A DNA stretch of 31,581 nucleotides from a virus. The DNA lies in UHGV virus genome UHGV-1546770; one strand, given 5' to 3'. Numbering within the stretch: the first letter of the stretch is position 1; each line of letters begins with the position of its first letter. Made by a program: the position numbers and the translations under genes. The notes below the pieces were generated by a model. The model was given only the letters and a program-made list of their open reading frames with translations. It searched no databases and was not told the origin of the DNA. Of this stretch, positions 2,603 to 29,643 are shown piece by piece.

Positions 2603-2631
2603 ATTATACCACAATAATTTCGTATTGTCAA
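2603..2631 (-). promoter_or_regulatory. sigma70-type promoter, exact consensus TTGACA-N17-TATAAT
   Basis: Minus strand TTGACA atacgaaattattgtgg TATAAT; the -35 hexamer overlaps the TGA stop of the upstream gene. Confidence 0.6.
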
Positions 2632-2972
2632 GGGGTATTTTCAAGAATTTCTACTGGAGTTTCAAATACACGACTGTTTAGTGCAATCAGATCTGCTCTA
2701 AACATATCAATTCGCTTATCAAAAGCACTATAATACTTCTTCATAAGCTTTTCCTTTGCAAGCATCTTACCCTTCTCCTCGTCGTACACATCACCTTTCG
2801 CAAGCTTGACCTTGACCTTAAACTGCTTAGGCATCATGTACTTCTCACGAATCATATAACAGTCAAACTCATTGAGAAACTTATCAATCTTATTAATTGC
2901 ATCAAGCTCAGTTCCTCTTAGAACAGCGAACGTTTCCTTCGTGTTTGGGTTGCTATAATACTGAATAGCCAT
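2628..2972 (-). CDS. hypothetical protein (114 aa)
   Basis: Intact ORF in the co-directional series; preceded by tandem promoters at 3032-3060 and 3114-3142. Confidence 0.6.
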   Translation of the reverse strand: MAIQYYSNPNTKETFAVLRGTELDAINKIDKFLNEFDCYMIREKYMMPKQFKVKVKLAKGDVYDEEKGKMLAKEKLMKKYYSAFDKRIDMFRADLIALNSRVFETPVEILENTP

Positions 2973-3113: not shown

Positions 3114-3142
3114 ATTATATCACAATAATTTCTGTTTGTCAA
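3114..3142 (-). promoter_or_regulatory. sigma70-type promoter, exact consensus with TGn extended -10
   Basis: Minus strand TTGACA aacagaaattattgtga TATAAT; -35 overlaps the TGA stop of the 3139-3669 gene. Confidence 0.6.
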
Positions 3143-3669
3143 GTGGCACTTTTTAAATATGCCCTACTATTCGCAAGTAATCCAAGTAATTTTACGGCTG
3201 TATTACAAATACAATCTCCATCTTGCCACCACATACACTTCTCCTCTGAACACATCAACGTTTTTGACGACGTTGCAGTATCAGAAAGACAATAGCATAG
3301 TGGACAGTATTTTTTATCTTCCATGTCCGTCACCTCACATAAAAAATCAAAACTATCCATGAACTCATTATATTGTTCTACACAGCGCTCAAGACATGGA
3401 AAGTTATTAACTTCTTTCTTATATTGTTTTCCATAAAACTGCATATATGGCTGTCCAAACTCTTCATCAAGCACTAGCACATTATCAAAGTCATTCCAGT
3501 CAGAGATATCGTTTTTAAAGCAAATACTTACACTCAGCGCATGGTCAATACTCTTTGTTACATACCACGCCGCATCATGATTAATCCAGCTTCCGCCTTC
3601 TCTAAAATGTGCTTCAATAAGCTGCTCTTTAGTTGGCACATACTTAAGTTTATAGCTTTTTGCTTTCAT
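3139..3669 (-). CDS. hypothetical Cys-rich protein (176 aa)
   Basis: Intact ORF; start ATG overlaps the stop of the upstream ORF; C-terminal CPLCYC and CMWWQDGDCIC motifs. Confidence 0.6.
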   Translation of the reverse strand: MKAKSYKLKYVPTKEQLIEAHFREGGSWINHDAAWYVTKSIDHALSVSICFKNDISDWNDFDNVLVLDEEFGQPYMQFYGKQYKKEVNNFPCLERCVEQYNEFMDSFDFLCEVTDMEDKKYCPLCYCLSDTATSSKTLMCSEEKCMWWQDGDCICNTAVKLLGLLANSRAYLKSAT

Positions 3670-3893
3670 TATTTCACCTCATCCATCTTCGCGCCACAGT
3701 TGTGGCAGTAATTATGCGTATATTCTTGAGGGCATCCGCAATCGTTGCACCTATACTTCCACGACAGCCATGTTGCGATTTGATTTATTGCGTTCCAATT
3801 TCGGCGGCTGTTTGAGCCAATCCTCAACACCGTGTAAACATTTATTGAAACATTTCGGTGATTCGCACTCATTGATTTCTGCACAGCACTCAC
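3669..3893 (-). CDS. hypothetical zinc-ribbon protein (start uncertain)
   Basis: C-terminal CNDCGC...CHNCG motif; stop overlaps the start of 3139-3669; no RBS seen before either candidate start; overlaps 3751-4080 in another frame. Confidence 0.3.
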   Translation of the reverse strand: MSAVQKSMSANHRNVSINVYTVLRIGSNSRRNWNAINQIATWLSWKYRCNDCGCPQEYTHNYCHNCGAKMDEVK

Positions 3894-4080
3894 AAACAGT
3901 GGTCATTGATGCAATCCATGCAGCTAATTCCTCATCGCTCATCGCCCGGATGTGGTCGGCGTTGGTTCGCTTTTTCCTCCGGTACTCGCAAAAAGAAGCT
4001 GTGCATTCTCCTCTGATAAAATAAGTGCAATTTGTTTCTGCTTCTTCTGGTGTTCCAGCACCACATGTGTACTTAATCAC
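3751..4080 (-). CDS. hypothetical Cys-rich protein (109 aa)
   Basis: GTG start preceded by AAGGAG; multiple Cys (CECCAEINECESPKC). Confidence 0.45.
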   Translation of the reverse strand: MIKYTCGAGTPEEAETNCTYFIRGECTASFCEYRRKKRTNADHIRAMSDEELAAWIASMTTVCECCAEINECESPKCFNKCLHGVEDWLKQPPKLERNKSNRNMAVVEV

Positions 4081-4312
4081 TTGTACGCTCCTTAATAAAT
4101 TTTTCCCTGATTGCTTCTTTCTCTGGGTCTTCGTATGATGTCTGCCAATACGCTTGCAGCCATTGGATATGCCTTATTTCTTCGTCAGATAGCAAGTACA
4201 GATGATCCAAAACAACCTGTCTGCGCTTGTATCGGTCTGGATGGGCGTTCCCTGCATAGATGCACTGGCAGCTTTCATACTCACAGATTGGACACTTAGC
4301 CATTGTCAGCAC
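4073..4312 (-). CDS. hypothetical zinc-ribbon protein (79 aa)
   Basis: N-terminal CPICEYESCQC motif; intact ORF in series. Confidence 0.5.
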   Translation of the reverse strand: MLTMAKCPICEYESCQCIYAGNAHPDRYKRRQVVLDHLYLLSDEEIRHIQWLQAYWQTSYEDPEKEAIREKFIKERTSD

Positions 4313-4562
4313 CTTCTTTCCGTTCTCCGTATGAGCAGAAATCGTTGTCCTCAGTCCAGTTAAATGACAGTCTCATAGGGCAAGGCGGCTTGTTATGGTA
4401 CTTGCACTCCCGACATCTGACCACTTCCACGGCATCCTTTTCCAATAGCAATGCCGCTTTTCCATAAACGGAATGCTCATATACTCCCGGTGTAAAATCA
4501 GCATCGTGAATCATTTTTAATGCCGTTGCTACCGTCCGTCTATCGGCATCAATCGGCCGCAT
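4296..4562 (-). CDS. hypothetical protein (88 aa)
   Basis: Intact ORF; CRECKYHNKPPCP motif; short overlap with neighbours. Confidence 0.55.
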   Translation of the reverse strand: MRPIDADRRTVATALKMIHDADFTPGVYEHSVYGKAALLLEKDAVEVVRCRECKYHNKPPCPMRLSFNWTEDNDFCSYGERKEGADNG

Positions 4563-4818
4563 CTATAATCTCCTCCAAACCTGCAATATGTTCAATCATC
4601 ATTTCTTTCGCAAACAATTCTCCTTTATGCAAGCATTCTCTCGCTTGAATAGATGCATCGACCAATTCATCAATAAGCTGCTTTAGGTTATTCGCATCAC
4701 TATACCCGTCATAATCGAAACCGATGTCCCATATAAATTGTAACCATTCATCTACACAATTTGGCTCACACATTTTACATCCTGTCTGTTCATCAATCCA
4801 ATATTTCATTTTATTCAC
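4549..4818 (-). CDS. hypothetical protein (89 aa)
   Basis: Intact ORF; CKMCEPNC motif. Confidence 0.55.
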   Translation of the reverse strand: MNKMKYWIDEQTGCKMCEPNCVDEWLQFIWDIGFDYDGYSDANNLKQLIDELVDASIQARECLHKGELFAKEMMIEHIAGLEEIIDAAD

Positions 4819-4834
4819 TCAAAATCCTTAGTTA

Positions 4835-5167
4835 TTATTTATCCTCTAACACCCAAATGTCACCGCGCTGCTCTACAATTTTATAATTCTCAACAACCTC
4901 GTTATAAGACACAGAATCATCAATAATACATTCGTATCGGTATTCACCGGTTTTAACAATACATGTTAAAATTCCACAAGTAACCATAATGGATAAACCA
5001 ATAATAAGAGAAGATGTAGTTGCCCAAACAGGCCCATCAAGGATCATAGACACAGCAAATACAATTAATCCAGTAACAAATATTATGAATGCCAATACTG
5101 ATACCCACGTGGGCAAACCAGTAACAGCCGTTTTATTTAATATAGTTATCCCTTCTACCATTCTCAT
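4835..5167 (-). CDS. hypothetical membrane protein (110 aa)
   Basis: Two hydrophobic stretches (VSVLAFIIFVTGLIVFAV, LIIGLSIMVTCGILTCIV) consistent with transmembrane helices. Confidence 0.6.
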   Translation of the reverse strand: MRMVEGITILNKTAVTGLPTWVSVLAFIIFVTGLIVFAVSMILDGPVWATTSSLIIGLSIMVTCGILTCIVKTGEYRYECIIDDSVSYNEVVENYKIVEQRGDIWVLEDK

Positions 5168-5397
5168 TCCTCCACAAAATATTGAATATACAATTGAATT
5201 ACATCACCTTCTGCCTCAATTCTCTCAGCTTCTTCAATTAATCCTTGCGCTTCCCAATATTTTTCCTGTTTAAATTTTTCTAACTGTTCACGAGTTGCTA
5301 ATTCTATTTCAGGATACTTCCTAAAGAGGTCAAGCAAATCTTCTTTTTGCCACCATGTGAGATTCGTAGATTCCATTTCTTTTCTAGTCATTACCAT
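5164..5397 (-). CDS. hypothetical protein (77 aa)
   Basis: 4-nt start/stop overlap with downstream gene; charged helical composition. Confidence 0.55.
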   Translation of the reverse strand: MVMTRKEMESTNLTWWQKEDLLDLFRKYPEIELATREQLEKFKQEKYWEAQGLIEEAERIEAEGDVIQLYIQYFVEE

Positions 5398-5687
5398 AAA
5401 TCCTCCGAATATAATTCACAGACAATCCTCTCTGCTAAATCATCGCATGCCGAACGCGCCACACTCCAATTCATTGCCTTTCTATGACAATCTTCGCAAT
5501 GATAATAAAAATTATCCGTATCGTCATATCGACAGCTATCACAATAAATATCATCGAATGCTTTATAAATAAGGTTGCTTATTGCCTCTTTATTCTTTTC
5601 AAGTTTTTTGACTGGTACTACTCTAACATATGAAGGACAACTATCGTCACAAAGAGCACAATGTCTACCATCTTCACATATCATCAT
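5391..5687 (-). CDS. hypothetical Cys-rich protein (98 aa)
   Basis: CALCDDSCP, CDSCRYDD and CEDCHRK motifs. Confidence 0.55.
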   Translation of the reverse strand: MMICEDGRHCALCDDSCPSYVRVVPVKKLEKNKEAISNLIYKAFDDIYCDSCRYDDTDNFYYHCEDCHRKAMNWSVARSACDDLAERIVCELYSEDLW

Positions 5688-5692
5688 TTTTA

Positions 5693-5950
5693 TTATTCTC
5701 CTTTTATCTCATATTTTTCTATTAGTTCGTTTAATTTACTTAAGCCATTCTTAGAAATTAAATCGTTTTCATAAAGGAAATCACATAATGCTTCAAGTTC
5801 AGAGACAGGGATGACCTCTATTGTAGGAAATTTATCAAGAAACGCTTTCTGCTTGAGGCAGTATTCTCTGATAACAGCAACATTCATATTTTCATTATCT
5901 TTATCAAATATGATTACTTGATTTACCACATCAGTATCAATTGGTCTCAT
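5693..5950 (-). CDS. hypothetical protein (85 aa)
   Basis: Intact ORF in series. Confidence 0.55.
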   Translation of the reverse strand: MRPIDTDVVNQVIIFDKDNENMNVAVIREYCLKQKAFLDKFPTIEVIPVSELEALCDFLYENDLISKNGLSKLNELIEKYEIKGE

Positions 5951-5965
5951 TTTATTTAGCCCTCC

Positions 5966-6235
5966 TCAAATCTTTCTCCCCAAACAATCAACTTCAACAA
6001 CATCATTGTCGAGCACATCTGTTTCATAAAGCATCTCTTCTAGCGCATGAAGCTCATCAAAATAATATGCAAGTTTCTTCTTTAGGTTTTCTATAGCTTC
6101 TTCTTTTGTTTCGCCATATCCATAAATATTTGTTAAGTCAAAATTATGATATCTATCAGCATCATTAAATAAATAACAAGTATGTGACTGAGACTTTTCC
6201 TTTCCATCATTATGATGTGCGATTTTCATTAACAT
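5966..6235 (-). CDS. hypothetical protein (89 aa; start trimmed from track ORF 5966-6298)
   Basis: Internal ATG at 6233-6235 preceded by AAAGGAG at about 6 nt; the longer track ORF would overlap 6210-6410 by 89 nt. Confidence 0.5.
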   Translation of the reverse strand: MLMKIAHHNDGKEKSQSHTCYLFNDADRYHNFDLTNIYGYGETKEEAIENLKKKLAYYFDELHALEEMLYETDVLDNDVVEVDCLGRKI

Positions 6236-6410
6236 AATTTGCTCCTTTCGGATCGTACATGTCACAAGCACCTGTGTCCTCATAACACAAATGCCCAACT
6301 ATAAAAGTCATCCCCATTTCTTTTTCTTTAGGAGTTGGATGTGGGATATCACAGCATAAATTCCAATCTCCACAACCAATATAATGCTTGCATGTCCCGC
6401 ATTTATCCAT
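6210..6410 (-). CDS. hypothetical zinc-ribbon protein (66 aa)
   Basis: CGTCKHYIGCGDWNLCC motif; downstream of promoter at 6535-6562. Confidence 0.45.
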   Translation of the reverse strand: MDKCGTCKHYIGCGDWNLCCDIPHPTPKEKEMGMTFIVGHLCYEDTGACDMYDPKGANYVNENRTS

Positions 6411-6534: not shown

Positions 6535-6562
6535 AGTATATCATATATCTGCTATTTGTCAA
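6535..6562 (-). promoter_or_regulatory. sigma70-type promoter (TTGACA-N16-TATACT)
   Basis: Minus strand TTGACA aatagcagatatatga TATACT in the 6411-6734 intergenic region. Confidence 0.4.
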
Positions 6563-6607: not shown

Positions 6608-6643
6608 TATAAAAAAATAACTCCCACTATATAAGTGGGAGTT
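6608..6643 (-). terminator. putative intrinsic terminator
   Basis: Hairpin AACTCCCAC-tatataa-GTGGGAGTT followed on the minus strand by a T-run (complement of A7 at about 6611-6617); downstream of the helicase gene. Confidence 0.5.
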
Positions 6644-6734: not shown

Positions 6735-8282
6735 TTACATTTTCTTCTTAAGTACACCAATTTCTTTCCAAACATTTCCGTCCATATCTACTTCAAAGCA
6801 GATCAAATCATTCTTAGAACCAACTCTGTTCTTTACAATTCTTAATCCAACATAATTTTTATCATATCTTAAATCATGTTCTATTGGCTCTCCCCAAGTA
6901 TCATCTTCACAGACATATACATATTTTTGCTTGTCGTCTGCTGTTAGGTGTTTCCACATTTGCATTTGGTCAGTAACATGCATCATTCTCTTTGAACTTG
7001 CGATCTCTTGAGAATTTAAGTTTTCAATGGGGATATCATGCGCTGAATCTGTAAGCTGGAAAGTACAAATACAATACATTTTTGTTTCATGAATCCACTC
7101 TGTAATTTTTGTAGCAGTTGCGGCTAACTTTGCAAAGTCTTCAAGTCCAGAACATTTAAGTGTATCATATGCTACACCATCACACTTGTAAATTGTATTG
7201 GCTTTTTTGATTTCCATTTCAAGCACTTCATCTTCATAGCAAGAGCCGATATTCTTAAACAAGAATTTGCCACTACTTTCAGATTCAACCCATTGCATAA
7301 TTCGTTGCACCTTACGATATTCAGAAGATGTTTCATAAATTCTCTTTTTATAAGACTCTTCATCTTCTGTATACACACCATTATCATCCATTTGTCTATA
7401 GATATACTTTCCGTTATCATCTTTATATGATCCGAGTGCAATTTCTCTTTCTGGTTTATAAATATCTTTAATTCCATGTAGCTCTTGAATCTCTGGAGAA
7501 TTAATGCATGTAACTAAGAAGTTCAATTTAATGCTCTCTGCTGACATTTCGTTTGCAAGCAATAGAATTTTTTGCTTTTGAACAAGGACTAGATACGCAA
7601 TAAGATAAACGAGATTTCTGCCCTTACCACTATTGCTCAAAGCTCCTGTCATCAAAACGTTTCCGGGAAGTAATCCTCTATAATACTTCTGAAGATATGG
7701 CCATGGCCCAGCAACACCCATAGATGGCATGCACAAGAATTGGTCAATACATGAAACTGCGTTCTCTGTAAGAACAACAGGTTCATCAATTGCTTGTACT
7801 TTATTAGCTACCTTGTCAATTCGACCACGAACAATTCTACAAATATCATCTGGCGTTAATGCATTGAAATTCTTAATTGCCAAGATTTTTGATACGTCAT
7901 ATCCAGTCTCATTAAAAGCCCTTAGTAATGAAAACTTTTTAAATATTGAAAGATAATTCTTAATATCATGAGGGTCACTCATTGCCATTAATTCTTTAAT
8001 TGTCTTATATCCACCATACTGTCTGTATTGTTTAAAACGCTCTTTAGACATGCTACAGAACGTATTAATTTTCAATTCAGTAAAATCTTCAGAATATGAA
8101 ACATAATAATCAGAAAATAACTGATAAAAAAACTCACATGCCTTGTCCGAAAAATCATATTTTGGGACAATTGAGGTTCCATATGTTAGATATAATGTTG
8201 GCTCTTTATAAAATGATCCAACTACCAGCATTTCGGACTGGCTATTAGTTAATTCAAGTTCCATATTTTCACTTCCTATCAA
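6735..8282 (-). CDS. DnaB-like replicative helicase family protein (515 aa), divergent P-loop
   Basis: P-loop-like GALSNSGKGR, and C-terminal LRIVKNRVGSKNDLICFEVD resembling the DnaB-family KxRxG motif; sits in a replication-type gene neighbourhood. Confidence 0.5.
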   Translation of the reverse strand: MIGSENMELELTNSQSEMLVVGSFYKEPTLYLTYGTSIVPKYDFSDKACEFFYQLFSDYYVSYSEDFTELKINTFCSMSKERFKQYRQYGGYKTIKELMAMSDPHDIKNYLSIFKKFSLLRAFNETGYDVSKILAIKNFNALTPDDICRIVRGRIDKVANKVQAIDEPVVLTENAVSCIDQFLCMPSMGVAGPWPYLQKYYRGLLPGNVLMTGALSNSGKGRNLVYLIAYLVLVQKQKILLLANEMSAESIKLNFLVTCINSPEIQELHGIKDIYKPEREIALGSYKDDNGKYIYRQMDDNGVYTEDEESYKKRIYETSSEYRKVQRIMQWVESESSGKFLFKNIGSCYEDEVLEMEIKKANTIYKCDGVAYDTLKCSGLEDFAKLAATATKITEWIHETKMYCICTFQLTDSAHDIPIENLNSQEIASSKRMMHVTDQMQMWKHLTADDKQKYVYVCEDDTWGEPIEHDLRYDKNYVGLRIVKNRVGSKNDLICFEVDMDGNVWKEIGVLKKKM

Positions 8283-8956: not shown

Positions 8957-10033
8957 TTACTGTGAAACTACTTCAAGAATCTGGTTTAGAATAGCAATAT
9001 CTGTAACCTTGGCGAACTGGTCTGGAAGTCCTGCTTCCTTTATGGCAGCACGTTTGGCTTTCTTGTCTTCAGGAGAAAGAGATGACAGAACTCCCTTAAT
9101 TTCTGCCTTAAGGTTCTTGCATTCTTCGTCTTTTCTAATTTCCACATCCAACTCGTCTGTTTCCATTAGATCCTCTTTATGTGAATTATAATAGTCTTCC
9201 TTTTCTTTTTTCTCCTGCTTTGATTTGCTCTCAATATATTCGTCTGTTGCGTCATGAGACTTAATAGAGTTCTTAATTGCATCCTTGACAGTATCAATAT
9301 AATTCTTTGCAGAAACTTCTACTCTGTCAGCAATATCTTCAAATCTACCACCTGCATCAATATATCCATTTCCACGAAAGTACATCCATCTGCTAACACC
9401 ATCTACATGCCCATCAGTAATTTCTCTTTCAATAACACCCATCATACAAATATCTGCCTTGTTAGCAAAAATCGAATCATAATCTGTTGAAAGATTAGAT
9501 GTAAGCATCTGGTATTCATCGCCATTTTTCTCTTTAATATCCTTAATCTTAGTGTGCCCAATAAACACTAGACAGTACCCACTAGATTCTAGTCTGGTAA
9601 TAACGGAATTAATTAGCTCATCCACTTTTCTACGCCCAGCTCCATAACCTCCAAAACACGCATTAAATTCATGCTTGGTGCCAGACTTCTTATAGTCAAG
9701 ACGCACAATTTCCTTTTGAGCCATAGAAATCCATTCGTCAACGGTATCAAATGCAATAATAGAAAACGAATTTTCGTCCTTATTTTCTACTAGTTCGTCA
9801 ACGACTTCCATTAGTGTAGCCCAATCTGGGCAATCAGCAACCATTAGATTGTCAATAGCAAGATAACCTCTCTCATTTCCACAGCTAATCAATAGGCCAT
9901 GACTCATGTCGCCATATAGTTCTTTAATTAAATTTGCAAACAATGTAGTTTTGCCCCATTTTTTTGGTGCTCTCCAATAGTGGCGATAGTTAGTAATATC
10001 TACTGTTACCTCATTTTTCTTCCATAAAGCCAT
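8957..10033 (-). CDS. P-loop ATPase, RecA-like (Sak4/AAA_24-like)
   Basis: Walker A APKKWGKTT, Walker B-like SIIAFDTVDEW, and LVFIGHTK motif; K/E-rich C-terminal extension. Confidence 0.5.
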   Translation of the reverse strand: MALWKKNEVTVDITNYRHYWRAPKKWGKTTLFANLIKELYGDMSHGLLISCGNERGYLAIDNLMVADCPDWATLMEVVDELVENKDENSFSIIAFDTVDEWISMAQKEIVRLDYKKSGTKHEFNACFGGYGAGRRKVDELINSVITRLESSGYCLVFIGHTKIKDIKEKNGDEYQMLTSNLSTDYDSIFANKADICMMGVIEREITDGHVDGVSRWMYFRGNGYIDAGGRFEDIADRVEVSAKNYIDTVKDAIKNSIKSHDATDEYIESKSKQEKKEKEDYYNSHKEDLMETDELDVEIRKDEECKNLKAEIKGVLSSLSPEDKKAKRAAIKEAGLPDQFAKVTDIAILNQILEVVSQ

Positions 10034-10040
10034 AATAATA

Positions 10041-11051
10041 TCAGTCTCCTTTACCTTTTAAACTATTTATATATCTATCTAACTCTTCTTGTGTGATATA
10101 TCCTTTTTCAATTGCATCTTCCGCATACAACCAATGCAATGCCTCGCCTGTTTGTGGATGTTTATACGTATAATTTTGTTTACCTCTACAGCACTTTGTA
10201 ATAGAGCTTGGATCACATCCATATAAATTTTGTACTTCTTTTGCTCCCCAAAAAATTTGATTTAATTCTATACAATATATTCTTCTACATTTCCACCAAT
10301 TACTACCTTTACGAGAATCACTCATCTTTTTCTTTGCTTCTTCTGTGTGATGTTTCCCATACATTGGATGATTGCTTGGATTTATAAATCTTTCTTTTGC
10401 TTTTTCTGATAGATTTAATTTTTGTTCATCTGACAATTTTTTACCTAAACTGGGATGTTGTTTTCCTATCCATATATGTTTGCCTTTAGTTGTTGGATTT
10501 GCCCAATATAATTTATGTTTTTCATACCATTGTTTATATGTTTCTTCATCCATGCGTTCTTTTGGAGAAACTTTAAACTGTGGATTATTCTCGCCTACTA
10601 ATCCTGCTCTTCCATACATTGGATGATTATTTGGATCTGAAAGTCTTTCTTTTGCAGCTTTTGATATCTTTTTTCTTGTTTCTTTACTTGGAGTCCATCC
10701 TTGCGTTGTTCCTCCACCATAAACAAGATTATACCAATTGTTAGATTCAACAGCATTAAAGAAAACACTATAATTATATTCCATTTCATTTAATTCTTCT
10801 GCAGAATAAGCAATATCAATTACATTTCTTACAAAATTTTCTTTTCCATATTTGTCAATTGCTTGTTTAAATGCTGCACCACTACCAAGATATTCTTGCC
10901 AATTTCCATAGAATTTTCTTTGGCCTAAATATCTTTTGCCATCAATCAAATTCGTTGTGATATAAATAAATCCATATGGATCTTTTACTTCCGTATATGT
11001 TGTATCTTGTAGCCCATCAACGGAAGAATTCATTTCTTTTAATTCTTCCAT
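10041..11051 (-). CDS. GIY-YIG homing endonuclease with NUMOD3 repeats and NUMOD1-like HTH
   Basis: N-terminal YGFIYITTNLIDGKRYLGQ (GIY-YIG), repeated NHPMYG...K..S motifs, C-terminal ELNQIFWGAKEVQNLYGCDPSSITKCCRGK helix-turn-helix. Confidence 0.7.
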   Translation of the reverse strand: MEELKEMNSSVDGLQDTTYTEVKDPYGFIYITTNLIDGKRYLGQRKFYGNWQEYLGSGAAFKQAIDKYGKENFVRNVIDIAYSAEELNEMEYNYSVFFNAVESNNWYNLVYGGGTTQGWTPSKETRKKISKAAKERLSDPNNHPMYGRAGLVGENNPQFKVSPKERMDEETYKQWYEKHKLYWANPTTKGKHIWIGKQHPSLGKKLSDEQKLNLSEKAKERFINPSNHPMYGKHHTEEAKKKMSDSRKGSNWWKCRRIYCIELNQIFWGAKEVQNLYGCDPSSITKCCRGKQNYTYKHPQTGEALHWLYAEDAIEKGYITQEELDRYINSLKGKGD

Positions 11052-12253: not shown

Positions 12254-12463
12254 TTAATACTTATAATATCTTTCATCCATGACCGCATTATAATATGTGT
12301 ATTTGTCTAAAATGTCTTTCCCTATGTTCAACATATAATTTTCGTGCTCACAGCATGGACATCTCGCTTGTATATATAAATACTCAATGTAATTATTTTG
12401 TTCATCAACCTGAAAAATTGTTCCACATTTCTGGCATTGAACATTGACGCTCTTTGATTTCAT
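12254..12463 (-). CDS. hypothetical zinc-ribbon protein (69 aa)
   Basis: CQKCG...CPCCEHEN motifs; downstream of two consensus promoters. Confidence 0.5.
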   Translation of the reverse strand: MKSKSVNVQCQKCGTIFQVDEQNNYIEYLYIQARCPCCEHENYMLNIGKDILDKYTYYNAVMDERYYKY

Positions 12464-12770: not shown

Positions 12771-13745
12771 TTAAACCATATCATCCAAAATATTCGCGGC
12801 TTGCTGCTTTTTGTCTTTAGACATATTTGCATATCTCATAGTAGTAGCAATATTTTTATGATTAAGAACTGACGCACAAAGATAAATATCTCCAGTCTTT
12901 TCGTACAAATTAGTTGCACAAGAATGTCTCAACACATGTGGTGTAACATGCTTACTTGTCACATCCTTACTATATTTTTCTAGCATCACCCTAATGCCGT
13001 CTCTTGTAATTCTCTTTTTAAAGCTAGAAATAAACAAGGCATCTGTATTCGCCATGCTAAAATATTTGTTTCTATCCTGTAGCCACAATTCTAGCTGCTT
13101 CTTTACTCTATCGCCAAATAGAATATTACATGTTTTTCCTCTTTTTTCGATTACCTTAATAGTATTATTTTCGAAATCAATATCACCAATATCAATTTGC
13201 GTGATTGCAGATACACGCAACCCAGTAGTTAGTCCAAGCATAATAATGGCTAGATCCCTATTTTTCATCTTTTTGCTTGCAAGCTTATCAACATTTTCAA
13301 GAATCATTTGCATTTCTTTTTCTGTTAAATAAGCAACATCTGGTGTATCTTGCACTTTAGGACGTTCTGTTCTCTCCATTGGATTTTCTTTAATATAATC
13401 ATTTTCTTTAAGGAACCCAAAAAACGTATTCAATGCAGACCACTTTGTCGCACGAATACTATCACTTGTATTATAATGTCCATTGATAGTTTCTTTATTC
13501 TTCAATGCGGCAAAATATTTATTAATATCCAAAGGTGTTACCTTTTTATAAAAATCATTTGAGATTCTATTTTCATTAATAAATTCTGCAAATTCCTTCA
13601 CATATGCTACATATCTCTCAACTGTTGTATAAGATTTAGTTATACACATATAATAATAAAATTCAGAAAAAATTTTAGGAAGTCCTGTTAATTTTGCCTG
13701 CATCTTATTTGTAGCAACAATTTCCTTTTCCATTCTTCCTGTCAT
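12771..13745 (-). CDS. tyrosine recombinase / integrase (XerC/XerD-like)
   Basis: Catalytic-domain motifs TGLRVSA (Arg), HVLRHSCAT (His-x-x-Arg-His) and TMRYANM (Tyr) in the expected order. Confidence 0.85.
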   Translation of the reverse strand: MTGRMEKEIVATNKMQAKLTGLPKIFSEFYYYMCITKSYTTVERYVAYVKEFAEFINENRISNDFYKKVTPLDINKYFAALKNKETINGHYNTSDSIRATKWSALNTFFGFLKENDYIKENPMERTERPKVQDTPDVAYLTEKEMQMILENVDKLASKKMKNRDLAIIMLGLTTGLRVSAITQIDIGDIDFENNTIKVIEKRGKTCNILFGDRVKKQLELWLQDRNKYFSMANTDALFISSFKKRITRDGIRVMLEKYSKDVTSKHVTPHVLRHSCATNLYEKTGDIYLCASVLNHKNIATTMRYANMSKDKKQQAANILDDMV

Positions 13746-16173: not shown

Positions 16174-16458
16174 TTATTCCCAAATCACCTTCTGTTTAAG
16201 ACAGCCTTCATAAACATCTGGATAACTTACTTCTTCAATATTTGGCTTGTCTTTCCCTTTAAAGTTATTCCAAGCGGATCTTCCAAATGTAGTATGGCAC
16301 ACAGGACAACAATAATTTGCCATATCAATCTGATAACTATAAAGCAGGTCATCATCAGTCATGTCCATTCCATGGAACCAATTTTTACATTCTGGACACT
16401 GTACTGCAATATGCCGAATGGGAATGGGTTCATATTCAACTCTTACATTAAAATTCAT
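16174..16458 (-). CDS. hypothetical zinc-ribbon protein (94 aa)
   Basis: CPECKNW...CCPVCH motifs. Confidence 0.5.
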   Translation of the reverse strand: MNFNVRVEYEPIPIRHIAVQCPECKNWFHGMDMTDDDLLYSYQIDMANYCCPVCHTTFGRSAWNNFKGKDKPNIEEVSYPDVYEGCLKQKVIWE

Positions 16459-16636: not shown

Positions 16637-17266
16637 TTATTTCAATTTTTCATTCACATAAAATTCAGTACCCTTATGATAACACATCTGACATCCAAGA
16701 CAACTTTTTGCTCCACAATTCACACTTACATTATTCTCTTTAATATATTCTTTGTCATATACAGTAAAGACATGATCAACAAACCAAAATCTTTCCATAT
16801 TAAGTTTCATTACCTCATTCATCTTTGGGCTGCTAACTACCAAAGAAAGATTATCAGGTTTTGCAATTTTTCTTTCATTGAACACTCTATCACAAATTGC
16901 ATAATTCTTTGTCCAAATACCAAATGAGGTATATGGATTTCTATTACAAATGTTTACATAATTAATCAACTGTGTCTCATTTTCAATATCTCCAAACGCC
17001 TCAAATCTATAAATCAGATCATTTGTAACAGGGATTTCGTTCCCTTGCAGGATCTTGGTCTTAAGAATATGTCCATTCTCAATCAAATGCTCTTTCAGTG
17101 ACTTGCGCATCTTCATATAGGTGCTTGCATAACAATGACAGCACACTCCATCTTTATCCTTCTGTCTTGCAAGACAAAATTTATTATTTGCACAGCATGT
17201 CCCAATGCTCTTCATCCCATGTAGTTTTCCAGAATGATTTGTTTCCCAAACGATTCCGTTCATCAT
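16637..17266 (-). CDS. hypothetical Cys-rich protein (209 aa), possibly Gp37/Gp68-like
   Basis: N-terminal GTCCANNKFC...GVCCHCYA cluster and C-terminal CGAKSCLGCQMC; family assignment from memory only. Confidence 0.5.
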   Translation of the reverse strand: MMNGIVWETNHSGKLHGMKSIGTCCANNKFCLARQKDKDGVCCHCYASTYMKMRKSLKEHLIENGHILKTKILQGNEIPVTNDLIYRFEAFGDIENETQLINYVNICNRNPYTSFGIWTKNYAICDRVFNERKIAKPDNLSLVVSSPKMNEVMKLNMERFWFVDHVFTVYDKEYIKENNVSVNCGAKSCLGCQMCYHKGTEFYVNEKLK

Positions 17267-22784: not shown

Positions 22785-23762
22785 TTAAGCTCCAACCCCA
22801 ACCTTTGCGTTAATCAGCTTGACGAACTCGTCCATCCATGCATGACCATCCATAATCTTTCCCCACCGGTTTTCTTCATAGTTTGCAGTGTTTCTGTTCG
22901 GAGCGCTATGACCAATCATATCACTCATCGCATTCACAGCGCCCCATGCAGTTCCTTTGAACTTAGCAATATCGGGCATGAAGTAGCAGATAGAATAGTT
23001 ATCTTTTACTTTCTGAATGTTTGCTTTCTTGCGATCAGAATCATTTTCCGTTACAGGGAACATCTGGTCAAGGATTTCATTGATCTGCTCAAAGTCAAGT
23101 TTGATATTCGCAAGTCTATCTGCCTCTTCGTCAAGTGCATCCATATAAAGATTTGCCATGCCCAAACAATGTCTCGCTTCTTCAAGCTTCTCGTCAAGAT
23201 TCCCAATATGCTTTGTGCTCCAAGAACGCTGAGCAGTATTGAGTGCAAGTGAGAGAGTATTATTGCAAACGACTCGAATTGGAGTCATGCCAATCTTGAT
23301 CGCTCCAGTTCCGTCATGAGAATTAGAGAACACCATATAAGGTTCCACATCATCATCAAGCACTTTCTTAGTCGGCATCTTTGCAAGCAGCCAAACTCTT
23401 TTCCCTCCGTTGAGAGAACCTGCGGTTTCATAGCGAACAATTCCATCTTCCGTTTCACCAACAATTGCATCAGTGAAAGAAAATGCGTCTACATTCTGTA
23501 CAATTTTATATCTATTCGTTACAATGCCAAGCACAGTTTTATCATCACTTCTGATGTTTGCTTTGTAGTTCTTGATTTCCGTTCCATCATCCATAAAGAC
23601 AGGAGTCTGTTCAACAGTCCAATCAAGCCCTGCCAGTTTGAGCGCTTCTGCACTGTTGGGAGCATCCGCAAGGATTTTGCATCTATCCTGCGTCTCCATA
23701 TAATGCCAAGGTTTCTCGCGTACACTAAACATGCTGTCGTTCATTTCAATGCAATGAGCCAT
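22785..23762 (-). CDS. DUF932 / TIGR03299-like phage-plasmid protein (start trimmed from track ORF 22785-23882)
   Basis: Motif MVFSNSHDGTGAIKIGMTPIRVVCNNTL matches the family signature as recalled from memory; internal ATG at 23760-23762 preceded by AAAGGAG. Confidence 0.55.
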   Translation of the reverse strand: MAHCIEMNDSMFSVREKPWHYMETQDRCKILADAPNSAEALKLAGLDWTVEQTPVFMDDGTEIKNYKANIRSDDKTVLGIVTNRYKIVQNVDAFSFTDAIVGETEDGIVRYETAGSLNGGKRVWLLAKMPTKKVLDDDVEPYMVFSNSHDGTGAIKIGMTPIRVVCNNTLSLALNTAQRSWSTKHIGNLDEKLEEARHCLGMANLYMDALDEEADRLANIKLDFEQINEILDQMFPVTENDSDRKKANIQKVKDNYSICYFMPDIAKFKGTAWGAVNAMSDMIGHSAPNRNTANYEENRWGKIMDGHAWMDEFVKLINAKVGVGA

Positions 23763-23994
23763 AATTCTTATCTCCTTTAACAAAATACATATTGATTCTT
23801 GCTTTTCTTGCTTTTCTTTTTTTCTTTTTTGCCGCACGCTGTTTCCAAACAGGATGGTCTGGGTACATTTCAAAACAATCACATTGTTTTTGCAAGCATC
23901 TTTTTCGTTCTACTTGATTCCATGTCGCTCCCTTGTCATGAAAATGGCAGTAACCACACACATTGTCGCTTTCTGACCCATACAAGCAAAGCAT
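23746..23994 (-). CDS. hypothetical zinc-ribbon protein with basic tail (82 aa)
   Basis: AAAAGGAGG RBS; CGYCHFHD...CDCF motifs and a KKKKRKARKAR stretch; 17-nt overlap with the downstream gene. Confidence 0.5.
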   Translation of the reverse strand: MLCLYGSESDNVCGYCHFHDKGATWNQVERKRCLQKQCDCFEMYPDHPVWKQRAAKKKKRKARKARINMYFVKGDKNYGSLH

Positions 23995-25668: not shown

Positions 25669-25806
25669 TTAGATTTTTACCAGCGTGTCGGCAAGCTGGA
25701 TAGCAATACCTAAGATTGTTAAAATGAGAACAATAATCCCGTCTTTCCTGTCGTCATCTCCGAATAGCAGTACACAAGCAATGATGATAAGCAAAATAGC
25801 AATCAT
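25669..25806 (-). CDS. small single-pass membrane peptide (~45 aa; start trimmed from track ORF 25669-25893)
   Basis: Internal ATG preceded by GGAG; sequence MIAILLIIIACVLLFG...ILTILGIAIQLADTLVKI is almost entirely hydrophobic. Confidence 0.45.
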   Translation of the reverse strand: MIAILLIIIACVLLFGDDDRKDGIIVLILTILGIAIQLADTLVKI

Positions 25807-25951
25807 TTGTTTTACTCCATATACTTTTGTATTGTTTATTGTTTTTGTATTAATTTTCCATGTTATATTCGCATTTTTTGATAGTGGCTTCATTTACATT
25901 GCAAACTATACTGCTCAAAATTGAAATTATATTTTGCGTTCTATATACGCA

Positions 25952-26095
25952 TTAAATGATGCCACATGAACTTGCAATCATTGCAATAATTGCAAGGAAC
26001 AAGATGCCTCCGAGCAAGCTCCCGATACCAGATTTGGTAGCATCTTTTCCAAAAAGCAGTACACAAACAATAATGATTAGCAGAATAACAATCAT
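25952..26095 (-). CDS. small membrane peptide (~47 aa), paralog of 25669-25806; below the ORF-track cutoff
   Basis: GGAGGTAAAATCA before the ATG; MIVILLIIIVCVLLFGKDATKSG... resembles the neighbouring peptide; coordinates hand-counted. Confidence 0.4.
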   Translation of the reverse strand: MIVILLIIIVCVLLFGKDATKSGIGSLLGGILFLAIIAMIASSCGII

Positions 26096-26116: not shown

Positions 26117-27067
26117 TTAATAATACTTGTATGCATCTTTGTCAACATTTACGTCAGTGATATCTCCATATGTGATATCAGAATGTGCCATCAAGAATCT
26201 ACCAATTGCCTCTTCCATTGAATATGCGTCCGTGTCGTACCACTCTGTGTTTCCGTTAGTGTTAACATACTCAATCAGATAATAGCCATAATTGTATTCT
26301 GGCTCATCACGATTATTGTCTTCAAGATATCTGTCAATGTCAAACAGAGAATCATATCGCACAGGTGCTTCCACATAATCGAATTTGTCATTCTCCGTTG
26401 TGCGCTCAAGGATTTTACATGCCTCCTTAATGCTTCTTTCCATTTCAGAAAGAATGACATATTCACTTTTTGTATGTGCTTTGTAATAACCACAAGAAAG
26501 ATTCACTGCTGCACAACCAAGAGCGGGAGCGATTTCACAGATATCAGAATAAGATCCATACGCTGTTTTATAAAATTCCTTTGTAATAAAGTCCTCGAAC
26601 TCATCATTTGCACAGGAATAAAACACTGCATCATTTGCGTTGGCACGATCAAATTCAATGATGTAATTGAACTCAAGATTTCTTGCCAGCTCAGAGTCTG
26701 CAAACTTACTTGAGCCTACGCAACCAACCTCTTCGTCCTCGCAGAACAGAACAGAGCAGTTAAACTTTTCAAGAATCTTGAAAATCATATAGACACCGCA
26801 TCTATCGTCGCCTCCGATTCCGTTAGGGCTTGAAACTTTATTGTTCTTTTTACTATACATGAACATATTAGGAAGCTTTTCATGCACAGTATCAAGATGT
26901 GCAACCAGCAGCACAGGAAATTTCCCTTGTGCATATACATACCCATCTCTGTTAAGAACTGTTCCATGAGTCTTTTGCAGCTTCTGTCTAACATGATTCT
27001 TTAGACTTGCTTGAGACATCTTGCAAATTTTTTCAAACTCTTTATTCATAATTGATTTTACCTCCAT
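26117..27067 (-). CDS. putative co-catalytic zinc metallopeptidase-like protein (316 aa)
   Basis: Ordered motifs VLLVAHLDTVHE, GIGGDDRCGV and FCEDEEVGCVGS resemble the His/Asp, Asp-Asp and Glu-Glu metal-ligand blocks of M20/M28/M42-type enzymes; assignment from motif memory only. Confidence 0.45.
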   Translation of the reverse strand: MEVKSIMNKEFEKICKMSQASLKNHVRQKLQKTHGTVLNRDGYVYAQGKFPVLLVAHLDTVHEKLPNMFMYSKKNNKVSSPNGIGGDDRCGVYMIFKILEKFNCSVLFCEDEEVGCVGSSKFADSELARNLEFNYIIEFDRANANDAVFYSCANDEFEDFITKEFYKTAYGSYSDICEIAPALGCAAVNLSCGYYKAHTKSEYVILSEMERSIKEACKILERTTENDKFDYVEAPVRYDSLFDIDRYLEDNNRDEPEYNYGYYLIEYVNTNGNTEWYDTDAYSMEEAIGRFLMAHSDITYGDITDVNVDKDAYKYY

Positions 27068-29397: not shown

Positions 29398-29643
29398 TTA
29401 AACTTCTTCAAATTCCTCGCAATCAGTAACTTCAATAGGAGTTACATCTTGCATATAATACTTTGAGTCGCCACAGTTGCAATAATAATGCTTTATCGCA
29501 TCCGTGTCCTTATTCTTGTTTGCCTCGTAAAAGGTCTCTCCAAAGCTCTTGCAGTCACCAAGATAACCACAATCTACACACTTTAAGCTCATTTTTCTTA
29601 CTCCTCCACTTGTTCTATGATGTTGAGTTGTTTGAAAATGCAC
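29398..29643 (-). CDS. hypothetical zinc-ribbon protein (81 aa)
   Basis: CVDCGYLGDC...CNCGD motifs. Confidence 0.5.
   Translation of the reverse strand: MHFQTTQHHRTSGGVRKMSLKCVDCGYLGDCKSFGETFYEANKNKDTDAIKHYYCNCGDSKYYMQDVTPIEVTDCEEFEEV

Follow-up and report, generated by a model that had tools for sequence, protein, structure and literature searches.

The window analyzed here, the whole 31,581-nucleotide stretch of the UHGV virus genome UHGV-1546770, carries between positions 3139 and 6410 a run of 11 credible small genes and one gene remnant, all on the minus strand. Every open reading frame (ORF) that the first-pass annotation had placed in this run was confirmed in position, on the minus strand. 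The run forms a single transcription unit (6562-3139, minus strand), in which a terminator is followed by a promoter and then by tightly packed genes. Promoters and terminator were identified by consensus matching alone. In the direction of transcription, the features are as follows:

6619..6643, minus strand: intrinsic-terminator-like hairpin and T-run (10-bp stem with 5 GC pairs, tail ATTTTTTTAT)
6535..6562, minus strand: near-consensus sigma-70-type promoter of the run (TTGACA-16-TATACT, TG extended -10, 11/12 matches)
6210..6410, minus strand: first gene, 66 aa, 7 Cys (C-x2-C-x5-C-x5-CC...C-x6-C), with a Shine-Dalgarno (SD) site
5966..6235, minus strand: acidic 89-aa protein with 2 Cys, not Cys-rich (start 6235 according to public gene calls); conserved edge gene
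5693..5950, minus strand: 85-aa protein with an N-terminal scaffold (MRPIDxD ... FLDKFPTIE) and a non-Cys C-terminal module; variable cassette
5391..5687, minus strand: 98-aa protein with 10 Cys and two putative Cys4 sites
5164..5397, minus strand: acidic 77-aa protein without Cys; variable cassette, 8/23 loci
4835..5167, minus strand: 110-aa protein with 3 Cys and, as read directly from its sequence, two long hydrophobic stretches; variable cassette, 11/23 loci
4549..4818, minus strand: 89-aa protein with CxxCx3C near its N-terminus
4296..4562, minus strand: 88-aa member of a family termed CSYGER here (N-terminal RPIDAD, variable middle, C-terminal VVRCRECKY-x5-C-x14-C-SYGERK)
4073..4303, minus strand: 76-aa protein with an N-terminal Cys4 knuckle, CPIC-x4-CQC (start 4303 according to public gene calls)
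3751..4080, minus strand: 109-aa protein with 10 Cys, of the TNADxIRAMSDEEL...WLKQPAEE family
3669..3800, minus strand: putative 3′ remnant of a zinc-ribbon gene of the phrog_22543 type (RLIDAD...APTVDAVPV-xHGxW...CxxC...YC(P/H)NCGAKMD)
3139..3669, minus strand: last gene, with a Cys module confined to its last ~55 residues
3032..3142, minus strand: two tandem perfect sigma-70-type promoters (12/12, TG extended -10) that would start the next transcription unit

The hairpin sits between the stop of the helicase gene (6735) and the run promoter, and would close the helicase operon upstream. The run promoter aligns with six perfect TTGACA-17-TATAAT promoters found elsewhere on the same strand of the window, where about one site with at least 11/12 matches would be expected. 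An SD site precedes each gene of the run, the remnant being the sole exception, and successive genes are joined by overlaps of at most 26 nt or gaps of at most 16 nt. Genes for a DnaB-like helicase, a Sak4-like protein, an SSB-like protein, and an integrase lie immediately upstream, and the phage context also includes GIY-YIG. The position directly downstream of the helicase and the near-perfect extended -10 promoters agree with the earlier proposal of a phage early region, and by analogy the run may well be expressed early. The source is a ~150 kb phage of gut Firmicutes, and the run is probably its early operon just after the replication helicase.

The first-pass annotation had described a dense run of at least nine consecutive small zinc-ribbon ORFs with paired CxxC motifs. 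The underlying Cys enrichment is real and moderate: Cys makes up 64 of 1161 residues in the run (5.5%) versus 231 of 8157 (2.8%) in the other ORFs of the window (Fisher p=6e-6), and 3.1% in the other small ORFs (p=2e-4). With 3.2% Cys, the window as a whole is already Cys-rich, which makes the richness partly a lineage trait. The count of nine consecutive ORFs was wrong because the eight ORFs that had been listed are interrupted by four genes without Cys enrichment (5966-6235, 5693-5950, 5164-5397, and 4835-5167, which encodes a probable membrane protein). CxxC occurs nine times in the 11 credible genes, compared with 3.6 +/- 1.7 in within-protein shuffles (2.5x; p=0.005). Strict CxxC pairs were found only in 3669-3893 and 5391-5687 among the eight, the other six combining a single CxxC with cysteines at CxC, Cx3C, Cx4C, Cx5C, Cx7C, and other spacings. 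The zinc-ribbon label suits the middle of 5391-5687 (CxxC-x11-CxxC) and the remnant, whereas the others are Cys4 clusters without a known fold. Among the ORFs noted elsewhere in the window, the better zinc-ribbon-like cases are 12254-12463 (CxxC...CxCC) and 16174-16458 (CxxC...CCxxC); both are called genes, as are 23746-23994 and, although in a 64-aa form starting at 29592, 29398-29643.

The assessment that these ORFs could not be assigned to a known family was borne out. Nothing significant was found for the run ORFs in Pfam, NCBIfam, PADLOC, or PDB sequences, and the only PHROG match below 0.001 was that of 3751-4080 to phrog_2999 (E=4e-9), whose function is unannotated. Neither are the genes members of one family, as the earlier wording could be read, since no paralogy exists among them. 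The first gene, 6210-6410, matched no known family in the family searches and, because it is present in 22 of 23 related phages, marks a conserved edge of the region; its neighbor 5966-6235, also present in 22/23 loci (pN/pS 0.22), showed only a weak, sub-threshold likeness to antitoxin-like domains (Pfam PHD_like, E=0.013). The N-terminal 45 aa of 5693-5950 (12/23 loci, 76-96% identity, pN/pS 0.43) match three proteins that bear a CSYGER Cys module instead of its own C-terminal module. The sole credible gene with truly paired CxxC, 5391-5687 (C4-x5-C10-x2-C13-x3-C17 and C49-x2-C52-x11-C64-x2-C67), has relatives in only 25 clusters among 5.8 billion proteins, each at least 60% identical, and is a lineage-restricted orphan. 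A homologue of the probable membrane protein adjoins a CSYGER gene in an Ezakiella MAG. When compared with its common 128-129 aa form, which holds the Cys module CxKCTYxDxFWDGSGC-x9-CKFE, 4549-4818 has lost this module and is an internal-deletion derivative; in phage L001, the same N-terminal part is joined to a zinc-ribbon tail (APTVDVVHAHW...CSHC...YCPNCGAKMD). The only distant relative found for 4073-4303 is the C-terminal 80 aa of another protein (P0001, 47% identity, 4/4 Cys kept). The last 16 residues of 3751-4080 are aberrant, whereas 96-aa variants finish with the canonical WLQQxAEGE, which points to a recombination or deletion joint; 11 relatives of this gene adjoin CSYGER genes in Clostridia genomes, some of them without the Cys cluster. 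In 3139-3669, the four Cys of the N-terminal domain are not conserved and the Cys tail has a low-confidence structure model. A candidate relationship to DUF1831 (PDB 2iay, Lactobacillus plantarum lp2179) was rejected, with Pfam DUF1831 matches in 0/55 family members and no significant Foldseek match against the PDB. No function is known for DUF1831, to which the Cys tail bears no relation.

One listed ORF, 3669-3893, is unlikely to be a gene or to be expressed in the listed form. It shares 143 nt with 3751-4080, has no ATG, GTG, or TTG downstream of the 3751-4080 stop and no SD site at its two possible starts, and neither start version is recorded in a collection of 15 billion proteins from public gene calls. 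Its only matches are to the 3′ end of longer genes, and full-length relatives of the remnant are found in three related phages.

The 4296-4562 protein, which had no PHROG, Pfam, or PDB match and a poor AF2 model (pLDDT 55), opens onto what appears to be a large family absent from Pfam and PHROGs, defined by the C-terminal module VVRCxxC...C...DFCSYGER. We found 1859 relatives (about 1900 protein clusters), with a Pfam domain in 0/120 among the relatives listed. In 37 modules from many host families, only 37% identical on average, the residues C, C, C, C, Y, G, and E are invariant. About one in three ORFs of both module A and module B carries a strict N-terminal motif, versus 1.6% of the background. 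CSYGER genes were found in 104 species genomes, mostly of gut Clostridia and often as tandem copies, next to prophage replication and nucleotide-metabolism genes as well as Lar, Mom, and ToxN. The same arrangement is seen in the isolated Flavonifractor phage Chenonceau, where it lies between the helicase/resolvase and terminase genes and includes Lar-like restriction-alleviation genes. The run genes thus appear to come from a pool of modular, uncharacterized families common to phages and prophages of gut Clostridia. Lar-like proteins (Pfam Lar_restr_allev) being small Cys4 phage proteins, the occurrence of their genes in the Chenonceau runs and beside CSYGER genes could suggest that the run is specifically a set of such restriction-alleviation proteins. 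We regard this as very improbable, given that no Lar_restr_allev match was obtained at E<=1 in the run or at E<=0.1 in the rest of the window, and that neither part matched the corresponding PHROGs.

Comparison with 23 phages whose helicases are 97-99% identical, nearly all from one IMG/VR data set (3300045988), indicates that the run coincides with a hypervariable island of 512 to 3443 bp, with genes that are dispensable and mosaic across these relatives. Three of the phages lack the entire 5968-3239 stretch. Breakpoints recur at gene ends (5968/5951, 5702, 5414-5424, 5169, 4829, 4585, and 3144), and the commonest on the right, 3144, abuts the first of the tandem promoters. The replacement cassettes of three phages again contain small Cys-rich ORFs. 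This hypervariable, dispensable cassette island of modular families common to Clostridia phages, the main feature of the locus, was missing from the first-pass annotation.

Despite this turnover, the cysteines are retained. Natural variants keep 9/10 Cys in 5391-5687 (at 60-94% identity), 7/7 in 6210-6410 (17 variants), and 4/4 in 4549-4818, whereas variation affects 57%, 27%, and 15% of the remaining alignment columns, respectively. The pN/pS values, 0.22-0.44 in the seven run genes with variants (0.39 for 5391-5687 and 0.23 for 6210-6410), point to purifying selection, relaxed relative to the helicase, whose sequences are about 99% identical in aa and about 96% in nt. Exact run proteins also recur on tens to hundreds of public contigs. 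One could nevertheless see nothing special here, only a Cys habit of the lineage and a recombination hot spot where decaying ORFs without function pile up. The window-wide Cys content would fit, as would the remnant, the aberrant tail of 3751-4080, the internally deleted 4549-4818, and the phages without any of the variable genes. This account is quite unlikely given the purifying selection, the much stronger conservation of Cys than of other residues, up to invariance in the divergent CSYGER modules, CxxC above shuffle expectation, the SD sites ahead of all genes but the remnant, and families that persist in more than 100 species genomes.

Every Cys spacing in the run is compatible with metal binding, as the earlier reading had supposed, and the proteins may bind zinc or another metal. 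The C-x2-C-x5-C arrangement is the core spacing of WhiB-like and endonuclease III [4Fe-4S] motifs. Its occurrence in 6210-6410, 29398-29643, and a variant cassette gene (L002_9809) raises the idea that the clusters hold iron-sulfur rather than zinc, in redox- or oxygen-sensitive factors that would be the Clostridia-phage counterpart of actinophage WhiB-like proteins. The hosts, as Clostridia, are strict anaerobes, 5391-5687 opens with a ferredoxin-motif-like C-x5-C-x2-C-x3-C-P (Fer4_7, E=0.66), and the third and fourth Cys of CSYGER modules do not form a CxxC knuckle. However, no Pfam Whib or Fer4 match reached a meaningful score, spacing alone does not distinguish metals, and two CxxC pairs 8-20 residues apart, as in the middle of 5391-5687 and the module B type, are classic zinc ribbons, leaving the iron-sulfur alternative doubtful.

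Acidity is common to all credible proteins of the run (pI 4.2-5.9, net charge -2 to -13), the sole basic ORF being the probable non-gene 3669-3893. This is only weak evidence for protein binding, as the window in its entirety already has a median pI of 5.3. The acidity nonetheless disfavors nucleic-acid binding, one option of the earlier proposal; on this reading, the proteins would serve transcription or replication as zinc-ribbon factors that act on DNA or RNA of the phage or its host. Zinc ribbons frequently bind nucleic acids, the run adjoins replication genes, the remnant 3669-3893 resembles phrog_16351, annotated "DNA binding protein" (E=0.002), and weak likenesses to Zn_ribbon_RPB9, ribosomal protein L36, Rpb12, and MCM10 zinc modules were seen. 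All likenesses to known zinc ribbons nevertheless fell under family thresholds, no HTH or other DNA-binding domain was found in the run, and genes that are dispensable and differ between near-identical phages would be unusual regulators of a conserved genome. We therefore consider this role unlikely; the run proteins are probably not nucleic-acid binders. Together, the conserved Cys, the pN/pS of 0.2-0.4, and the acidic pI argue for real metal-stabilized accessory proteins that are probably protein-binding.

We thus favor, at a probability of roughly 0.5 for the reading as a whole, a hypervariable early accessory-gene island encoding small Cys proteins for host takeover or anti-defense. Host RNA polymerase would start at the near-consensus promoter just past the helicase-operon terminator and read about eleven small genes. 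About seven would encode acidic proteins of 66-176 aa, whose modules are too short to form a hydrophobic core and depend for their stability on a Cys4 (or Cys3-4 plus His) metal site, with zinc as the default guess and iron-sulfur possible in an anaerobic host. Individually dispensable, the genes turn over rapidly by two routes, whole-gene gain and loss at gene boundaries and module swaps inside genes at conserved junctions. The modules, drawn from the pool common to phages and prophages of gut Clostridia, are ordered as an N-terminal RLIDAD... scaffold, a variable middle, an aPTVDAVPV joint, and alternative Cys modules. As early small binders, the products may target proteins of the host or of competing elements, neutralizing or redirecting them; host takeover is a reasonable supposition, with anti-defense as the other possible role.

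Known systems offer several parallels. The WhiB-like [4Fe-4S] proteins of actinobacteriophages are also small, four-Cys, and phage-encoded early, and share C-x2-C-x5-C with 6210-6410 and 29398-29643, but show no sequence match and belong to a different host phylum, the metal of the run proteins being only putative. Haloferax volcanii one-domain zinc-finger micro-proteins with two C(P)XCG motifs indicate that such mini-domains are functional (PMC6562870, PMC10716476); as in the run, they have fewer than 70-100 aa and essentially one Cys4 zinc knuckle pair, but they are archaeal chromosomal genes rather than phage cassettes, and the likeness is one of description that implies no homology. Among phage families, phrog_22543, which matches both the remnant's full-length relatives and the form that 4549-4818 takes in L001, is unannotated, like phrog_2999, and the CSYGER family lies outside all PHROGs. 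Lar-like proteins (PF14354), small Cys4 phage proteins encoded in comparable runs of related Clostridia phages, make an anti-defense role plausible, yet 0 window ORFs match PF14354. Finally, phage lambda Orf73, a ~70-aa TraR/DksA-like Cys4 (CxxC...CxxC) zinc-finger protein of the exo-xis region, binds the RNA polymerase of its host, whose rRNA promoters it inhibits, and increases phage yield (PMC9239242). It has no sequence relationship to the run, where a zf-dskA_traR Pfam match and the N-terminal acidic coiled coil of Orf73 are absent and the CxxC spacing is 11 instead of 17; the host phylum also differs, and the run follows a helicase whereas the lambda block follows recombination genes. 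Like the run, however, the exo-xis region is a block of small ORFs without known function under an early promoter (PMC9239242), and we count the Orf73 precedent, together with the acidity of the run proteins, in favor of protein binding. Such runs are a common yet unstudied feature of gut-Clostridia phages rather than a new kind of system.

Every credible gene of the window lies on the minus strand, and the GC content is about 31-41% over its gene-bearing part. The run of small genes at 3139-6410, named here by their coordinates, is set among the following features:

12771-13745, minus strand: tyrosine recombinase/integrase gene (Phage_integrase, E=6e-35)
Upstream of the run, minus strand: SSB-like protein gene
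10041-11051, minus strand: GIY-YIG/NUMOD3 homing endonuclease gene, located between those for the Sak4-like and SSB-like replication proteins
Upstream of the run, minus strand: Sak4-like AAA_24 protein gene
6735-8282, minus strand: DnaB-like replicative helicase gene, upstream of the run (phrog_19, E=9e-30)
6643-6619, minus strand: strong terminator-like hairpin 3' of the helicase gene
6562-6535, minus strand: promoter TTGACA-16-TATACT with a TG extended -10, a consensus match preceding 6210-6410
14538-14510, 12764-12736, 12561-12533, 3142-3114, 3060-3032 and 2631-2603, minus strand: six perfect (12/12) TTGACA-17-TATAAT promoters, with those at 3142-3114 and 3060-3032 directly 3' of 3139-3669

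The run is an independently promoted operon of small genes, packed with overlaps of at most 26 nt and gaps of at most 16 nt. Four more minus-strand promoters in the window score 11/12, compared with about one match of at least 11/12 in shuffles. The window promoters have an extended consensus in common (CTTGACAAAnAGAAATTATTnTGGTATAAT), and a TG extended -10 is present in four of the six perfect ones, which probably constitute a family of strong early phage promoters. As consensus matches, these promoters fit a region read by the host primary RNA polymerase, i.e., early genes. The integrase gene lies mid replication/early region of this ~150 kb phage and is flanked by the perfect promoters at 12764 and 12561, and the C-terminal part of the homing endonuclease is similar to 28885-29343 (E=5e-4).

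The first-pass annotation had described at least nine consecutive small ORFs with paired CxxC motifs. The listed ORFs are present as stated, but this wording is not borne out: eight were listed, and four genes that are not Cys-rich (5966-6235, 5693-5950, 5164-5397, and 4835-5167) lie inside the run. Two or more CxxC motifs were found only in 3669-3893 and 5391-5687, the other listed ORFs having one CxxC each plus cysteines at other spacings. By sequence, two CxxC knuckles about 8-25 residues apart occur in 5391-5687 (C49xxC52-x11-C64xxC67) and in 3669-3893, and this spacing is absent from 6210-6410, 4296-4562, 4073-4303, 4549-4818, 3751-4080, and the tail of 3139-3669; counting paired CxxC motifs inflates the number of true zinc ribbons. 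Cysteine accounts for 5.5% of run residues (64/1161) versus 2.8% in the remaining window ORFs (Fisher p=6e-6) and 3.1% in its other small ORFs (p=2e-4), the latter two values indicating that the window overall is already Cys-rich. The 11 credible run genes contain 9 CxxC motifs, versus 3.6 +/- 1.7 in within-protein shuffles (p=0.005). The enrichment is real, and the conserved cysteines of the run are arranged in groups of four. Cysteines are also nearly invariant among natural variants of three run genes (9/10, 7/7, and 4/4 positions), and pN/pS values of 0.22-0.44 show the genes with such variants to be under purifying selection.

Other parts of the window also encode Cys-rich proteins. The 600-aa product of 27067-28869 (minus strand) has 31 cysteines, most of which, with ten CxxC motifs, fall in its final ~160 residues, where zinc-ribbon-like units seem to be arrayed in tandem; the protein is without a Pfam or PHROG match and has 673 cluster members in public data. 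The only Cys-rich window ORF with a significant Pfam family is 16637-17266 (minus strand, 209 aa, 12 Cys), which matches GP88 (PF17338, E=6e-9), a family of unknown function.

Regardless of function, the gene map is corrected: one of the listed ORFs is a remnant, and two genes derive from rearrangement. The ORF 3669-3893 is most likely a non-gene. It overlaps 3751-4080 by 143 nt, contains no ATG, GTG, or TTG beyond the stop of that gene, and has no Shine-Dalgarno site before either possible start, whereas all other run genes have one; both start versions are absent from a 15-billion-protein collection. Its final ~40 codons match the C-terminus of longer proteins at three loci from other genomes (L107, L108, and L110), which are of the type 'MRLIDADAL...APTVDAVPVxHGHW...CSEC...YC(P/H)NCGAKMD' and match phrog_22543. 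The 109-aa form of 3751-4080 ends with 'KLERNKSNRNMAVVEV'. That 96-aa variants carry the canonical family end 'WLQQxAEGE' shows this tail to be a recombination scar, and the altered end combined with the remnant evidence indicates that 3751-4080 became joined, by deletion or recombination, to what is left of the 3' end of a zinc-ribbon gene. A programmed frameshift linking the two ORFs was rejected, both on account of the 96-aa variants and because there is no slippery site. Similarly, 4549-4818 is an internal-deletion derivative without the 'CxKCTYxDxFWDGSGC-x9-CKFE' module of the common 128-129 aa form, and at locus L001 its N-terminal part continues into a different tail, 'APTVDVVHAHW...CSHC...YCPNCGAKMD'. 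In public gene calls, the starts are at 4303 for 4073-4312 and at 6235 for 5966-6298. The remnant and the two rearranged genes support a rival explanation, in which decaying ORFs pile up in a lineage that is Cys-rich anyway; the selection and conservation data contradict it, and we consider it distinctly improbable.

Using the helicase protein as query, we found 23 IMG/VR contigs from related phages, most of them 134-160 kb, and public assemblies with the label 'MAG TPA: Caudoviricetes sp.' also contain exact window proteins. Among cultured phages, even the closest is only distantly related (Geobacillus virus E3, helicase identity 31%). A megablast search of the region against GenBank phages gave no match, nor did tblastn of 50,697 phage records with the 1161-aa run concatenate; the latter negative is weak, since family members were recovered later with a single protein as query.

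Among the 23 related phages, conserved flanks enclose a variable island directly after the helicase gene. The identity of 2628-2972, a gene present on 683 contigs, is 77-100% in 22 loci and at least 99% in 21, and that of the other flanks is 91-94% for 6210-6410, 80-97% for 5966-6298, and 97-99% for the helicase. Between them, genes are gained or absent from phage to phage, and the homologues of 6210-6410 and 2628-2972 stand 512 to 3443 bp apart. In L007, L014, and L015, position 5968 is fused to 3239 and every gene from 5950 through most of 3139-3669 is gone, and the block 4560-3144 is common to the window and L001 only. Recurrent breakpoints are gene boundaries (6446, 5968/5951, 5702, 5414-5424, 5169, 4829, 4585, and 3144). 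L002, L021, and L023 have other cassettes in their place, likewise small and for the most part Cys-rich, and about half of the credible gene families observed at the island site have at least four cysteines. The island genes are thus naturally dispensable and turn over as cassettes at gene boundaries.

L005, L006, L018, and L019 have an inserted gene (about 9579-10553) whose 324-aa product ends in an HNH motif (CKMCG...EIDHILPLSKGG...CWRCNRSKG), between the helicase gene and the 6210-6410 homologue, where the window has only a terminator-promoter spacer; other loci have a 114-aa Cys-rich ORF and a 90-aa ORF in this spacer. Just downstream of the island, within an otherwise early-looking region, the stretch with 1772-2428 and 2628-2972 (minus strand) includes a gene that matches phrog_1491 'tail fiber protein' (E=1e-53) and has its own perfect promoter at 2631-2603. 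Also variable among the related phages is the region 2-1290, with seven minus-strand tRNA genes according to ARAGORN (Thr-tgt, Ile-tat, Tyr-ata, Tyr-gta, Met-cat, Leu-caa, and Leu-taa) and, between two of them at 246-325, a segment that strongly matches the RNA motif 'skipping-rope' (RF02924, 77.9 bits).

A very large family includes 4296-4562, whose C-terminal four-Cys module defines it as the CSYGER family (module A), established in this analysis and without a counterpart in curated libraries. Word-index candidates included 1859 relatives, and a Pfam domain was present in none of the 120 listed. Family members share an N-terminal 'M(R)LIDAD', a middle of ~35 residues, a joint 'PTVDAV(P/E)VV', and the module 'RCxxCKY...C...DFCSYGERK', the middle being wholly different between otherwise near-identical proteins. 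The window protein matches the pattern [VI]V[RH]C-x2-C ... C ... [DN]-[FY]-C-S-Y-G-E-[RK] and aligns across the entire module, in which 37 diverse sequences (mean column identity 37%) all keep the four cysteines and the Y, G, and E. Back-translated patterns located the module in 104 species-representative genomes, nearly all from gut Clostridia (Oscillospiraceae, Lachnospiraceae, Acutalibacteraceae, and others), often as tandem copies, with up to five in L040. The family gave no match in PHROG, Pfam, or PDB, and sequence-profile searches of PDB with the alignments A1 and A3 returned nothing significant. Literature searches found no paper with the string CSYGER in the library covered and nothing specific on the motif or on Cys-rich phage early proteins. 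An AF2 model of 4296-4562 from a 34-sequence alignment reached a pLDDT of 55, too poor for a fold search.

The same scaffold carries other modules. The N-terminal half of 5693-5950 is as in the CSYGER proteins P0180, P0226, and L029_5947, and its C-terminal half is different and Cys-free. Module B proteins ('xHGxW...CxxC...YCPNCGAKMD', phrog_22543), of which there are 33 in the 80 CSYGER genome neighbourhoods, have the N-terminal scaffold and joint of CSYGER proteins, and a strict N-terminal motif is present in 31% of module A ORFs and 33% of module B ORFs versus 1.6% of all ORFs. Modules are thus swapped within genes. A tentative extension, for which we would give well under even odds, is that the 'RLIDAD / YIDRE ... 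aPTVDAVPV' scaffold and its interchangeable four-Cys modules form one large unrecognised superfamily of combinatorial Clostridia-phage effectors, acting as a counter-defence or host-takeover toolkit. In such a superfamily, the variable N-terminal half would recognise the target, the metal module (VVRCxDC...C...DFCSYGER or xHGxW...CxxC...YCPNCGAKMD, with a non-Cys module as the alternative) would provide a common activity or docking function, and swaps at the conserved joint would create new specificities inside hypervariable early islands, the present one included. If true, the toolkit would match anti-CRISPR loci in breadth. The locus is most novel in its common scaffold, on which Cys modules are interchangeable, and in the large size of CSYGER, a family missing from curated libraries.

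In agreement with the earlier claim that no known family could be assigned, searches of Pfam, NCBIfam, PADLOC, and PDB sequences placed no run protein in a characterised family. With PHROGs, 3751-4080 alone gave a match below 0.001, to phrog_2999 of unknown function (E=4.2e-9, residues 32-91 on profile positions 49-104 of 108). This protein is a member of the 'TNADRIRAMSDEEL...WLKQPAEE' family, which co-occurs with CSYGER genes (11 matches in 80 CSYGER loci) and varies in the central Cys cluster. The 3139-3669 protein is a two-module fusion. Its residues 1-115 are a domain that is widespread on its own (exhaustive HMMER, 145 representative clusters at E<=0.001; AF2 pLDDT >90) without conserved Cys, and residues 116-176 are a 7-Cys tail found elsewhere as a separate 61-63 aa ORF (P0240, P0334), which in L114 stands inside another run of small Cys-rich ORFs. 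AF2 models of the run Cys modules are of low confidence. A lineage-restricted orphan, 5391-5687, has two putative Cys4 sites and 25 clusters, all at least 60% identical. For 4073-4303, one distant relative was found, the C-terminal 80 residues of P0001, with all four Cys kept; P0001, a 315-aa protein of public metagenomes, is a true fusion unless two genes were miscalled as one, and its N-terminal ~235 residues recur as a separate gene beside CSYGER genes in Clostridia, without a Pfam match. A tandemly expanded family was rejected, as there is no paralogy among run ORFs; the sole clear local duplication among window ORFs is the adjacent minus-strand pair 25669-25893 and 25952-26095 (64% identity over 36 residues, E=2e-9).

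Taken together, we read the run as an early hypervariable operon of small metal-stabilised binders for host takeover or counter-defence, with a probability of about one half. The anatomy of the operon is near certain, the function of its proteins much less so. Hypervariability, dispensability, small size, and early position are the usual signature of takeover or counter-defence genes, which is why such a role would be expected for proteins that would act early. Their cysteines would bind a structural metal, zinc being the default and iron-sulfur possible in anaerobes. It is rather unlikely that these are iron-sulfur, redox-sensing proteins, an alternative that mainly concerns the metal; the C-x2-C-x5-C spacing of 6210-6410 and 29398-29643 recalls [4Fe-4S] motifs, in 6210-6410 only partially with respect to the WhiB-like motif. 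The binders would target proteins, not nucleic acids. All credible run proteins are acidic (pI 4.2-5.9), which is weak evidence for protein binding because the window median pI is already 5.3, and we regard DNA- or RNA-binding regulators as similarly unlikely.

Much of the dark matter in gut phage genomes consists of tiny unannotated genes in runs. This locus is a concrete, testable example with a defined target, a single early operon whose dispensability and rapid change are evident from natural variants. Its predicted metal-binding modules extend to more than 100 gut Clostridia species and about 1900 protein clusters, and are absent from Pfam and PHROGs. Should they be counter-defence or takeover factors, the island would indicate new host targets in hard-to-study bacteria and be a source of small, stable binding domains.

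Matches to curated zinc-ribbon profiles (clan Zn_Beta_Ribbon) were not significant; the best, zf-ChsH2 for 3669-3893 (E=0.045) and Zn_ribbon_RPB9 for 4296-4562 (E=0.012), were far below gathering scores. WhiB-like and 4Fe-4S ferredoxin assignments were rejected, with neither a profile match (no Whib match; Fer4_7 E=0.66 for 5391-5687) nor a C-Xn-C-X2-C-X5-C or CxxCxxCxxxCP motif in the flanking residues typical of the family, as was a toxin-antitoxin assignment on profile searches; DUF1831 (PF08866) was not matched, and PADLOC models, used to look for known defence or anti-defence proteins, gave no match below 0.03. A precedent is lambda Orf73, a C4 zinc-finger protein among small early ORFs, which binds RNA polymerase and raises phage yield (PMC9239242). 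Its TraR/DksA finger has CxxC-x17-CxxC, an N-terminal helix with conserved Asp residues, and the zf-dskA_traR domain, whereas the spacing in 5391-5687 is 11; this family was rejected, with no Pfam match at E<=1. Lar restriction alleviation (PF14354) was likewise rejected, since Lar_restr_allev matched neither the run ORFs nor the other Cys-rich ORFs. Elsewhere, in a different genome, the profile does match a gene adjacent to a CSYGER gene, and a run made up of Lar-like proteins, excluded here by the profile searches, is extremely unlikely.

In Clostridia genomes, the large neighbours of CSYGER genes are of prophage replication, nucleotide-metabolism, and modification type, with ThyX, SSB, dUTPase, dCMP deaminase, DnaC-like loader, Lar, Mom, DUF551, and ToxN among the neighbouring Pfam families. 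The only cultured phage with a CSYGER-family member is Flavonifractor phage Chenonceau, in which ~25 small genes, most of them hypothetical, separate the terminase from the primase/helicase plus Holliday-junction resolvase, including three annotated Lar-like restriction-alleviation proteins, one 3751-4080-like protein, and one CSYGER-like protein. The dense run in the window is therefore an example of a layout that recurs among gut-Clostridia phages, and its proteins belong to uncharacterised families widespread in Clostridia (pro)phages. Variable early regions of phages were already known to encode small zinc-finger-like proteins; to these, the locus adds uncharacterised members and a natural-variation data set.
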